DNA from: Escherichia coli
GTDB lineage: Bacteria; Pseudomonadota; Gammaproteobacteria; Enterobacterales; Enterobacteriaceae
Assembly (NCBI RefSeq): GCF_022846255.1
Contig: NZ_AP025682.1
Reading direction: 5' to 3' (one strand)
Length of the DNA stretch: 64,000 nucleotides
Shown here: positions 27,154-29,730 of the stretch, piece by piece
Layout of the letters: every line of letters starts with the position of its first letter
Numbering within the stretch: position 1 is the first letter of the stretch
Position numbers and translations under genes: made by a program
Notes under the pieces: model-generated
Database searches by the model: none
What the model was told of the DNA's origin: nothing
What the model saw: only the letters and a program-made list of their open reading frames with translations

Positions 27154-28305
27154 ATGGCAGCTTCAACCTTTTTTATTCCTTCCGTGAATGTTATTGGTGC
27201 TGATTCATTGAATGATGCAATGAATATGATGGCAGATTATGGATTTACCCGTACCTTAATTGTCACCGACAACATGTTAACGAAATTGGGTATGGCGGGT
27301 GATGTGCAAAAAGCACTGGAAGAACGCAATATTTTTAGCGTTATTTATGATGGCACCCAACCTAACCCCACCACGGAAAACGTCGCTGCAGGTTTGAAAT
27401 TACTTAAAGAAAATAATTGCGATAGCGTGATTTCCTTAGGCGGTGGTTCTCCACACGACTGCGCAAAAGGTATTGCGCTGGTTGCAGCCAACGGCGGTGA
27501 CATCCGCGATTATGAAGGCGTTGACCGCTCTGCAAAACCGCAGCTGCCGATGATCGCCATCAACACCACGGCGGGTACGGCCTCTGAAATGACTCGTTTC
27601 TGCATCATCACTGACGAAGCGCGTCACATCAAAATGGCGATTGTGGATAAACATGTAACTCCGCTGCTTTCTGTCAATGACTCCTCTCTGATGATCGGTA
27701 TGCCGAAGTCACTGACCGCCGCAACGGGTATGGATGCCTTAACGTACGCTATCGAAGCGTATGTTTCTATTGCCGCCACGCCGATCACTGACGCTTGTGC
27801 ACTGAAAGCCGTGACCATGATTGCCGAAAACCTGCCGTTAGCCGTTGAAGATGGCAGCAATGCTAAAGCGCGTGAAGCAATGGCTTATGCCCAGTTCCTC
27901 GCCGGTATGGCGTTCAATAATGCTTCTCTGGGTTATGTTCATGCGATGGCGCACCAGCTGGGCGGTTTCTACAACCTGCCACACGGTGTATGTAACGCCG
28001 TTTTGCTGCCGCATGTTCAGGTATTCAACAGCAAAGTCGCCGCTGCACGTCTGCGTGATTGTGCCGCTGCAATGGGCGTGAACGTGACAGGTAAAAACGA
28101 CGCGGAAGGTGCTGAAGCCTGCATTAACGCCATCCGTGAACTGGCGAAGAAAGTGGATATCCCGGCAGGCCTACGCGACCTGAACGTGAAAGAAGAAGAT
28201 TTCGCGGTTCTGGCGACTAATGCCCTGAAAGATGCCTGCGGCTTTACTAACCCGATCCAGGCAACTCACGAAGAAATTGTGGCGATTTATCGCGCAGCGA
28301 TGTAA
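27154..28305 (+). CDS. yiaY: Iron-containing (group III) alcohol dehydrogenase YiaY (383 aa)
   Basis: [58 protein letters not shown]... Confidence 0.95.
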
Positions 28306-28320
28306 TCATCATTTCCACAA

Positions 28321-28348
28321 CGGCTGGCGAGTTGTCAGCCGCTTTTTC
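28321..28348 (+). terminator. Probable intrinsic terminator of yiaY
   Basis: cggctggcgagttgtcagccg hairpin followed by ctttttc. Confidence 0.55.
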
Positions 28349-28350
28349 AA

Positions 28351-28428
28351 CTATCTCAAAACTTGCTTTTTTTGAGATAGTTTCTCTTTCCTGCTATACA
28401 CTATCTCAATATTGCGCTTTTTTGAGAT
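28351..28428. promoter_or_regulatory. Two copies of a ~30-bp palindrome immediately upstream of the fic gene (candidate operators)
   Basis: ctatctcaaaacttgctttttttgagatag (28351-28380) and ctatctcaatattgcgcttttttgagata (28401-28428); each is the inverted repeat ctatctcaa-N11/12-ttgagata(g); the second ends 7 bp before the fic ATG. Confidence 0.5.
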
Positions 28429-28434
28429 AAGCAC

Positions 28435-29730
28435 ATGGCTATCAAATCACCTCCCGGACTTATTCCTTTATCACACTTATCGGGTGAGGAACTCCTGGCC
28501 CACCTGCGCTTTAACCGGGTTACCGATGAAAAAGGACGTTATCTGCCTTTTGATGAGTTGCAGTACCGCATCAAAAAAGGAGAAAACGTCGATGTGGCGT
28601 GGACGCTTACCCGTCTGGCGCGCAACGCGGCGATCCAACGAATTAATTATTGCAATGAAGCGGGTGAACAGGCCGGATTCAACATTACCCCGGTGATTGC
28701 AGAAGCGTGCGAGCTTGTCGACAAACGTGCTACCGCGCTGGCGCTGAAAGATCAGACTGAACGGTTACGCGGGGCCGGAGCCGAGTTAAGCCAGTTACGC
28801 CTGGAAGAGCCGATCACCAGCTCCCAGCTGGAAGGTGCGAATACTACAACGCTGGTGGCGAGAAAAATGCTGGAAACAGGGCGGTCGCCACGCACTGAAG
28901 ACGAGCATATGATTGCGGGAAATGCCCGGCTGATGGCGGAAATTCCGCACTTACTCGCAGAACCGCTGACACCTGCGCTTATTCGCCAGTTACATGCCAT
29001 TGGTATGGGTGGAATCAATGACGCGAAATATCGTCCGGGAGAATTTCGTGAAACAGATGATGTTGTGATCGCCGACTATGATGGCAATATAGTGCATCAA
29101 CCGCCCGCTGCGGCATTGTTACCGGAACGGCTGGAAAAAGTTTGCCAGTGGTTAAACAGCCATGAAGGGTATATTCATCCGTTGGTCCGTGCCTGCATTC
29201 TGCATTTTATGCTGGCCCATGAACATCCGTTTCGGGATGGCAACGGGCGCACCAGTCGGGCGCTGTTTTACTGGTATATGCTGAAATCGGGCTACGATGT
29301 CTTTAAATATATTTCCATCAGCCGTTTGCTTCATGCTGCACCGGTCAAATATGCCGCCAGCTACCAGTACACTGAATCAGATGGTATGGATCTGACTTAT
29401 TTCCTTGAATATCAGGCGGGTGTCATTAAACGTGCTCTGCAAAACTGGCAGCAGCATATCGATGAAATTACACAACGAAGCGCAAAACTCGATAGTGTGC
29501 TGTTTAGCTCTGGTGTGCTTAAACGCCTGAATCCGCGCCAGGTAACGCTCCTGAATGTGATGCTCGCCAATCCGGGGAAAGAGTACACAGTTGCTGAAAT
29601 TAGCGCGAGCCTGGGCGTCTCTGATAATACGGCTCGAGCTGATTTACGGACAATTGTTAAAGAAGGATTCGCGCAAGAGAAAAGAATTAATAACCAGCAA
29701 GCAGTGTACGTCGCACACTACCCGCTGTAG
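28435..29730 (+). CDS. Fic-domain protein (431 aa), class II (internal inhibitory motif), with C-terminal winged-helix-like domain
   Basis: Canonical Fic active-site motif [14 protein letters not shown] (HPFx[D/E]GNGRxxR); upstream SSQLEG matches the inhibitory-helix motif [S/T]xxxE[G/N]; C-terminal segment ...[29 protein letters not shown]... looks like a helix-turn-helix. Confidence 0.85.

Follow-up and report, generated by a model that had tools for sequence, protein, structure and literature searches.

The 64-kb window of Escherichia coli DNA analyzed here (the whole stretch of 64,000 nucleotides) contains two 30-bp palindromes, P1 and P2, directly upstream of the fic gene. As judged from the sequence, these very probably constitute a gene-linked pair of protein-binding operators, and Fic itself is probably the repressor that acts on them in the manner described below. 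Here, Fic binding, repression, the exact promoter and transcription start, the stoichiometry and the cooperativity between P1 and P2 are elements of the model that we infer. The relevant features of the intergenic region are as follows.

28351..28380, no strand assigned: P1, the distal 30-bp palindrome, CTATCTCAA-N12-TTGAGATAG, full form CTATCTCAA-aacttgcttttt-TTGAGATAG
28401..28430, no strand assigned: P2, the proximal 30-bp palindrome, CTATCTCAA-N12-TTGAGATAA, full form CTATCTCAA-tattgcgctttt-TTGAGATAA
28372..28377, + strand: candidate -35 hexamer TTGAGA, a 5/6 match to TTGACA and identical to the core of the P1 right arm
28392..28400 (block 28392..28402), + strand: candidate extended -10 element TG-c-TATACA, 17 nt after the -35, lying in a conserved TGnTATnnT block
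28397..28402, + strand: putative alternative -10 element TACACT
28424..28427, + strand: putative Shine-Dalgarno-like GAGA in the P2 right arm, 7 nt before the ATG

The order at the locus is the yiaY stop codon (28303-28305), a GC-rich terminator hairpin (28321-28341), P1, a 20-nt spacer (tttctctttcctgctataca), P2, the tetranucleotide GCAC and the fic ATG at 28435. In P1, each arm is perfect for 13 nt (28349-28361 and 28370-28382), and the two arms enclose 8 nt. In P2, 8 of the 9 arm pairs are perfect, the mismatch being the outermost pair. The two 30-mers share 80% identity and lie exactly 50 bp apart, start to start. An earlier note on this DNA had described a duplicated inverted repeat upstream of fic, with copies about 50 bp apart and placed between the yiaY terminator hairpin and the fic start; direct inspection of the sequence, a repeat search and a pattern search bear out this description. 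Two details required correction: the spacer, given as 11 or 12 nt, is N12 in both palindromes when the arms are read as 9-mers, and the gap between P2 and the ATG is not 7 bp but 4 nt (GCAC) for the 30-mer, or 5 nt when P2 is taken to finish at ...GAGATA. The motif had not been noticed by eye elsewhere in the window, and a search of all 64 kb for CTATCTCAA-N10-13-TTGAGATA indeed matched only P1 and P2, compared with 0.00 matches expected from 100 shuffles.

The position of the palindromes suggests a promoter in which the right arm of P1 doubles as the -35 element and P2 lies over the start site and the ribosome-binding sequence. Transcription is predicted to start at ∼28405-28410, and P2, which extends from the 3' edge of the candidate -10 element to 4 nt before the ATG, covers both this expected start and the GAGA sequence. 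A consensus promoter scan of the window did not call the candidate fic promoter because TATACA lacks the final T. The arrangement recurs in 52 distinct promoter regions of fic homologues, in which the spacer between the palindromes is 19-21 nt long and ends in TGnTATnnT, the last base or two of which overlap P2. The P2 end lies 0-12 nt before the ATG in these regions, and in many homologues the ATG abuts or overlaps it. Core positions 4-9 (TCTCAA) and 22-27 (TTGAGA) are almost invariant across the 52 regions, an invariance that is partly circular for the metagenomic promoter set, retrieved with exact cores, but unaffected by this in the protein-selected sets. The 12-nt centre is AT-rich and variable. 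Orthologues without P1 appear to provide a natural control: they carry -35-like sequences TTGACT (16 nt from the -10), TTGACG (17 nt), TTGCCA (18 nt) or TTGACA, and in the first three the -10 element is TAAACT or TAAAAT. Thus, a consensus-like -35 seems to replace the TTGAGA of P1 at a similar spacing in the three orthologues measured.

The same palindromes could instead act as hairpins, with P1 serving as a back-up terminator or insulator after yiaY and P2 as a 5'-UTR hairpin that hides the Shine-Dalgarno sequence, or they could form DNA cruciforms. P1 is listed by a terminator scan, with 13 pairs and a T-rich tail, and as RNA it folds at -14.1 kcal/mol (z = -7.25). Moreover, at the outer three arm positions, symmetric changes are more frequent than in shuffled controls; these are specific to each palindrome, not common to P1 and P2 within one locus, and a relic palindrome in the fic-less E. 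coli strain TUM14759 has likewise changed symmetrically in both arms. Such outer-arm co-variation is as would be expected from a hairpin or cruciform constraint, but lineage effects, or templated repair inside a palindrome, are other possible causes. Against a role as hairpins, the sequence itself, and not only the pairing, is invariant at the six inner base pairs down to ∼40% protein identity, 18-27% of cells at the outer arm positions are unpaired, P2 mostly has a T at both position 10 and position 21, and the stems are AT-rich with 3 GC pairs. With the candidate -10 between P1 and P2 and the -35 inside P1, P1 would lie outside the fic transcript; in E. coli it starts only a few nucleotides past the yiaY terminator, which leaves no space for a promoter upstream of it. 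The predicted fic mRNA would start inside P2, without the left arm, and its 5' end folds no better than shuffles. The best Rfam match has E = 3.8, and, because each lineage has a different gene upstream, there would be no conserved need for P1 to act as a terminator. Taken together, these data make a hairpin function very unlikely.

Two specific RNA candidates were considered and rejected. Read as a Rho-independent terminator, P1 has only 3 GC pairs and a TCTCTTTCCT tail, which suffices for a lax scan, and yiaY already possesses the GC-rich terminator at 28321-28341; furthermore, the position and sequence of P1 are conserved relative to fic and to no upstream gene. As a structured cis-regulatory RNA, the element corresponds to no Rfam family, and only three outer pairs co-vary while the six inner pairs are essentially invariant.

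The preferred reading of P1 and P2 as operators is supported by the linkage of the motif to fic across taxa. In 80 loci (517 kb in total) picked by protein homology alone, the core TCTCAA-N12-TTGAGA (≤1 mismatch) gave 33 matches, 32 of which lay within ∼170 bp upstream of a fic homologue. Usually, two copies were found at a distance of 49-51 bp, the second of which stops 0-12 nt short of the start codon. Hosts of the motif include Escherichia, Pseudescherichia, an enterobacterium, Pseudomonas, Marinomonas, Glaciecola, Ningiella, Alcanivorax, Halopseudomonas, Pseudoalteromonas and a Leptolyngbya; the motif-bearing fic homologues share 38-96% protein identity and occupy unrelated gene neighbourhoods. 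Among five orthologues obtained by exact protein look-up (Salmonella, Pantoea, Photorhabdus, Rahnella and Klebsiella), P2 was present in all five and P1 also in Salmonella and Pantoea. P2 is the most widely conserved site, being found in every close orthologue examined, those without P1 included; P1 is shared by Escherichia, Pseudescherichia, Salmonella, Pantoea, Pseudomonas, Marinomonas and others.

Additional evidence was obtained from a metagenome scan that used the paired motif alone. This returned 78 loci, in 65 of which a fic homologue starts directly beside the pair. Of the other 13, ∼8 are cut by contig ends, two (L091 and L143) have a fic 5' end that is destroyed but can still be recognized, and a third (L086) seems to be a relic of this sort; the two identical contigs from a Firmicute appear to be unrelated matches. 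By contrast with this paired form, a single-palindrome scan of viral contigs gave 120 matches, none paired and none adjoining a fic homologue, which looks like chance level for a 14-base pattern and points to the paired, gene-proximal arrangement as the specific form. By its distribution, the motif is a cis-element that travels with its fic subfamily and not a dispersed repeat.

The same conclusion was reached within E. coli. The palindrome/fic stretch of the window is identical to that of strain CFT073. The fic gene lies between yiaY and aldB in 1,572 of 5,426 complete E. coli genomes (about 29%), both palindromes are present in 1,575 of the 5,426, and the fic-positive strains include uropathogenic CFT073, ST131 and NU14 as well as O157:H7/O55:H7 lineages. 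In seven fic-positive Escherichia sequences, including E. albertii, variation was confined to 1 of 36 arm positions, compared with 10 of 44 loop and spacer positions. A genome-wide pattern search had been suggested in the earlier note, with a common dispersed repeat as the outcome that would count against an operator; no such repeat was seen in the complete E. coli genomes, where the median was 1 matching place per genome and the maximum 2, all at the yiaY-fic locus. A dispersed palindromic repeat of the REP/BIME or MITE-like kind was rejected as a candidate on these counts, together with the 2 copies in the window.

Given that fic is an insertion/deletion polymorphism between yiaY and aldB, the palindromes could alternatively be scars that a mobile fic cassette left by recombination or insertion, representing its ends or attachment-type sites. 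In K-12-like genomes, which lack fic, the junction falls inside an arm, with CAACTATCTC followed directly by TGTAA, so that the first nucleotides of the P1 left arm are fused to the aldB-side flank; in ∼500 E. coli genomes, one palindrome is kept although fic is absent. A deletion endpoint is, however, the simpler reading of the fic-less junction. Both palindromes lie on the same (upstream) side of fic, where they surround the promoter hexamers and keep a constant distance to the start codon, no matching element was found downstream of fic, and no recombinase accompanies fic in the loci examined. A scar origin is therefore exceedingly improbable.

The operators could also belong to a different regulator, encoded elsewhere in the host genome. 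Palindromic operators of such a shape are generic, and extra copies precede other genes in two loci, namely, a deaminase gene (L089) and a higA antitoxin gene (L027). The motif nevertheless follows fic through unrelated neighbourhoods and phyla and is absent from the rest of the window and from the locus flanks. A trans-acting host factor would have to move along with fic at every transfer, and fic was accompanied by no other conserved gene across the loci examined. To our knowledge, no motif of a known E. coli regulator (OxyR, IHF, CRP, FNR and others) fits the palindromes convincingly. The earlier note had left room for another regulator, which the gene-linked distribution of the motif makes unlikely; together with the finding, presented below, that the half-site type tracks a residue in the recognition helix of Fic itself, it renders this explanation decidedly improbable.

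If Fic is the cognate repressor, the protein should possess a domain capable of binding DNA. The features of the gene are as follows.

28435..29730, + strand: fic gene, 431 aa, supported by the open reading frame, Pfam, the family alignment, the structural model and fold matches
29518..29718, + strand: predicted C-terminal winged-helix region, from the AlphaFold model and weak helix-turn-helix (HTH) Pfam hits, with the predicted recognition helix at aa 397-409, including S396-D-N398-T-A-R401

The Pfam Fic domain (PF02661) was detected with E = 1.7e-19, and the Fic core motif HxFx(D/E)GNGRxxR is present at aa 264-275 and invariant in the family alignment. Before this core lies the class II inhibitory-helix motif (S/T)xxxE(G/N), here S129-S-Q-L-E133-G134 (SSQLEG), which 21 homologues share unchanged. 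The HTH hits in Pfam (aa 361-414) were weak, but the AlphaFold model (pLDDT 84.5, pTM 0.81) contains a canonical winged helix at aa 367-427 comprising helices 367-378, 386-393 and 397-409 and a β-hairpin at 413-427. Full-length Foldseek matches to the model were CbFic2 (8cil, the best match), SoFic (3eqx/3zcn), 7xux and other Fic proteins with a winged HTH (wHTH). Entry 7xux, which we take to be CccR from its release date only, shares about 17-18% identity with the model over ∼360 aligned columns; identity to CccR, SoFic and CbFic2 is about 16-21%. The PADLOC model for SoFic, an anti-phage defence system that acts by abortive infection through AMPylation, matched aa 96-427 at 1.1e-43, whereas the NCBIfam SoFic equivalog scored 40.3 bits against a cut-off of 550, and E. 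coli Fic is thus assigned to a separate subfamily. In summary, E. coli Fic belongs to the class II enzymes and carries a predicted winged helix at its C-terminus, which makes the protein a plausible DNA binder.

An N-terminal extension of ∼95 aa (window 28435-28720, aa 1-95) is absent from SoFic. Residues D31, G34, R35, Y36, W56 and R63 within it are invariant, and the model shows a helix at 52-66 and strands at 68-73 and 79-82 (helix plus β-hairpin). It is possible that this extension constitutes a second nucleic-acid- or target-binding module.

The relationship between the half-sites and the predicted recognition helix was apparent from distant homologues that lack TCTCAA. These possess palindromes of the same geometry, often paired, with other cores: ACTCAA/ACGCAA (N10-11), TACTAA/TGCTAA (N11), TATCAA (N11) and TACCAA (N11). 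The core type is paired with the residue at position 398 as follows.

Residue 398 = N: core xCTCAA, ACGCAA or TTTCAA, about 24 loci
Residue 398 = Q: core TACTAA or TGCTAA, 13 loci
Residue 398 = A: core TATCAA, 3 loci
Residue 398 = D: core TACCAA, 1 locus

Three exceptions to this pairing were found (L020, L059 and L068), and the loci counted are phylogenetically non-independent. The pairing is nonetheless hard to explain unless the helix of Fic itself reads the half-site.

A precedent for such behavior is provided by CccR (YPK_0951) of Yersinia pseudotuberculosis, a class II Fic enzyme that autorepresses via palindromes at its own -35/-10 region (PMC9755527). The evidence there comprises a 3.3-fold derepression in the mutant, electrophoretic mobility shift, DNase footprint and reporter assays, binding that was lost when the palindrome was mutated, and a requirement for dimerization (PMC9755527). 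The CccR operator is one pair of 10-bp boxes, AGATAATCAT-N26-ATGATAATCT, and the DNA-binding helices of the CccR dimer are 70 Å apart (PMC9755527). Like CccR, E. coli Fic is predicted to have an N-terminal inhibitory helix and a C-terminal HTH, and the helix distance of ∼70 Å compares with roughly 60-70 Å between the half-sites considered here. Unlike the CccR operator, that of E. coli fic consists of two 30-bp palindromes with 9-bp arms and a 12-bp spacer, placed 50 bp apart; the E. coli locus also has no T6SS context, and its protein carries the extra N-terminal region of ∼95 aa. The CccR precedent would therefore hold by analogy within a structural family.

In Shewanella oneidensis, the dimeric form of SoFic (SO_4266/mloA) binds the 100 bp that precede its own start codon, at a site that was left undefined (bioRxiv 10.64898/2026.07.09.737422). 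E. coli Fic shares the SoFic fold over its full length, as judged from the model, but is not an orthologue (equivalog 40 bits versus 550). In our own reading of the 300 bp of SoFic upstream DNA given in Table S2 of that preprint (bioRxiv 10.64898/2026.07.09.737422), five ATGTCGAT/ATCGACAT 8-mers occur between -137 and -28, with TATAGATA/TATCTATA palindromes further upstream. The ATGTCGAT/ATCGACAT repeats, which are not pointed out in the preprint, are candidate SoFic half-sites. Given that these repeats differ from those of E. coli and that TCTCAA palindromes are absent, the TCTCAA operator appears to be specific to the subfamily of E. coli Fic. EcSofic is accompanied by a downstream gene for a 47-aa AS1-like antitoxin (PMC12249575). 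No AS1 equivalent was found at E. coli fic, where the fic-aldB gap of roughly 107 bp is too small for a 47-aa gene.

In the case of CbFic2 from Coxiella burnetii, DNA binding is largely non-specific, and DNA is reported to switch the enzyme from AMPylation to deAMPylation (PMC10628234). E. coli Fic resembles CbFic2 in being a class II protein with a wHTH, 8cil being its best structural match, but CbFic2 has no known operator, and its DNA binding is tied to enzyme mode and not to a promoter. The phd-doc system of phage P1 offers a further parallel. Here, a Fic-fold toxin is kept at low expression because its promoter is controlled via two adjacent palindromic sites, as would be the case for E. 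coli fic. In phd-doc, however, a separate antitoxin, Phd, both binds the DNA and inhibits the toxin, whereas in E. coli the inhibitory helix, the enzyme and the putative DNA-binding domain reside in one polypeptide. A literature search for the motif sequence and for fic together with yiaY and aldB returned nothing relevant, and no description of the motif or of the E. coli gene was found. The E. coli fic element would accordingly represent another instance of the known Fic-wHTH autoregulation, in a different subfamily and with its own sequence and geometry.

The observations can be explained by the following model, in which P1 and P2 are tandem operators of the fic promoter and Fic is its own repressor. 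A Fic dimer would engage a single palindrome, with one of its two C-terminal winged helices on each half-site. Measured between centres, 18 bp separate the TCTCAA core from the TTGAGA core, and half-sites read as 9-mers are separated by 21 bp, corresponding to about two helical turns and roughly 60-70 Å. A dimer on P1 would cover the -35 element (TTGAGA, 28372-28377), and one on P2 would reach from the 3' edge of the -10 element across the transcription start to the DNA of the ribosome-binding site. Occupancy of both sites would exclude RNA polymerase, such that a potentially toxic AMP-transferase would be held at a low, self-limited level. The earlier proposal of an operator pair for a dimeric repressor, perhaps bound via the C-terminal HTH of Fic, is supported by the gene linkage, the bracketing of the promoter, the invariant core, the co-variation with residue 398 and, by analogy, the precedents of CccR and SoFic.

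If correct, this model supplies an exact operator and promoter map for fic in ∼29% of complete E. coli genomes, pathogenic lineages included. The same layout recurs in a large, widely transferred Fic-wHTH subfamily and would extend the single experimental precedent, CccR, to a family-wide rule, with residue 398 as a predicted, swappable determinant of specificity. The operator map also offers a handle for derepressing fic to find its target and allows one to ask whether self-repression restrains SoFic-like defence genes.

A more elaborate role for the operators is conceivable but unlikely. By analogy with CbFic2, operator DNA might act as an allosteric platform on which Fic dimers, or a dimer of dimers, assemble and which sets the AMPylation/deAMPylation state. 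Were this so, loss of operator occupancy, be it by dilution, DNA damage or takeover by a phage, would induce the toxin and activate it at the same time, and fic would amount to a one-protein toxin-antitoxin-like or defence switch with a recognition code at position 398 in which N, Q, A and D correspond to CTCAA, CTAA, TCAA and CCAA half-sites, respectively.

Several further observations were made at individual loci. The Salmonella enterica orthologues (L168/L169) adjoin AcaB/DUF3158 integrative-element genes and an autotransporter gene, that of Photorhabdus (L171) lies beside ParE and HicAB toxin-antitoxin genes and that of Klebsiella (L173) follows a DUF927 gene; these island-like contexts fit horizontal transfer of fic with its own promoter and operators. 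In E. coli 18KM2445 (L005 1-1963), two tandem yiaY copies, one annotated as a frameshifted pseudogene, lie upstream of fic.

Among the metagenomic loci with a lost or damaged fic, the operator pair in L086 (2837-2909) adjoins fosA7 and an unannotated HExxH protein. In L091 (7993-8066), where the pair precedes a gene for a dGTP triphosphohydrolase, the 5' end of fic survives as a decayed 'INRPP' remnant. At L143 (5149-5223), a 705-aa ORF in the opposite orientation cuts fic off behind its N-terminus, and a separate small Fic/antitoxin-like pair lies upstream. The metagenomic contig L089 contains a second full operator pair (1483-1556) ∼230 bp upstream of a TadA/cytidine-deaminase-like ORF (1783-2364; NCBIfam TadA 4e-15, below the cut-off), which directly precedes a fic with its own pair and may be a second regulon member. 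In Alcanivorax quisquiliarum (L027 1810-1839, 2867-2996), three palindromes at 50-bp steps precede fic, and a fourth, perfect palindrome (TCATCTCAAAAA-N6-TTTTTGAGATGA) lies 67 bp before a HigA-family antitoxin gene ∼1.2 kb upstream.

At the polymorphic fic segment (window 28349-29730, compared with L001 1650-1670 and L002 1650-1700), there is a loose resemblance between the 3' end of fic, CACTACCCGCTGTAG, and the junction of the empty site, AACTATCTCTGTAA. The relic palindrome of E. coli TUM14759 (L002 ∼1650-1690) reads AAACTCTCTCAAAATTTGCGATTTTTGAGAGAGTTT, with both arms changed alike (A to C and T to G), so that it has stayed perfectly symmetric although it has no gene to control; together with the outer-arm co-variation, its symmetry hints at arm-to-arm templated correction in palindromes.
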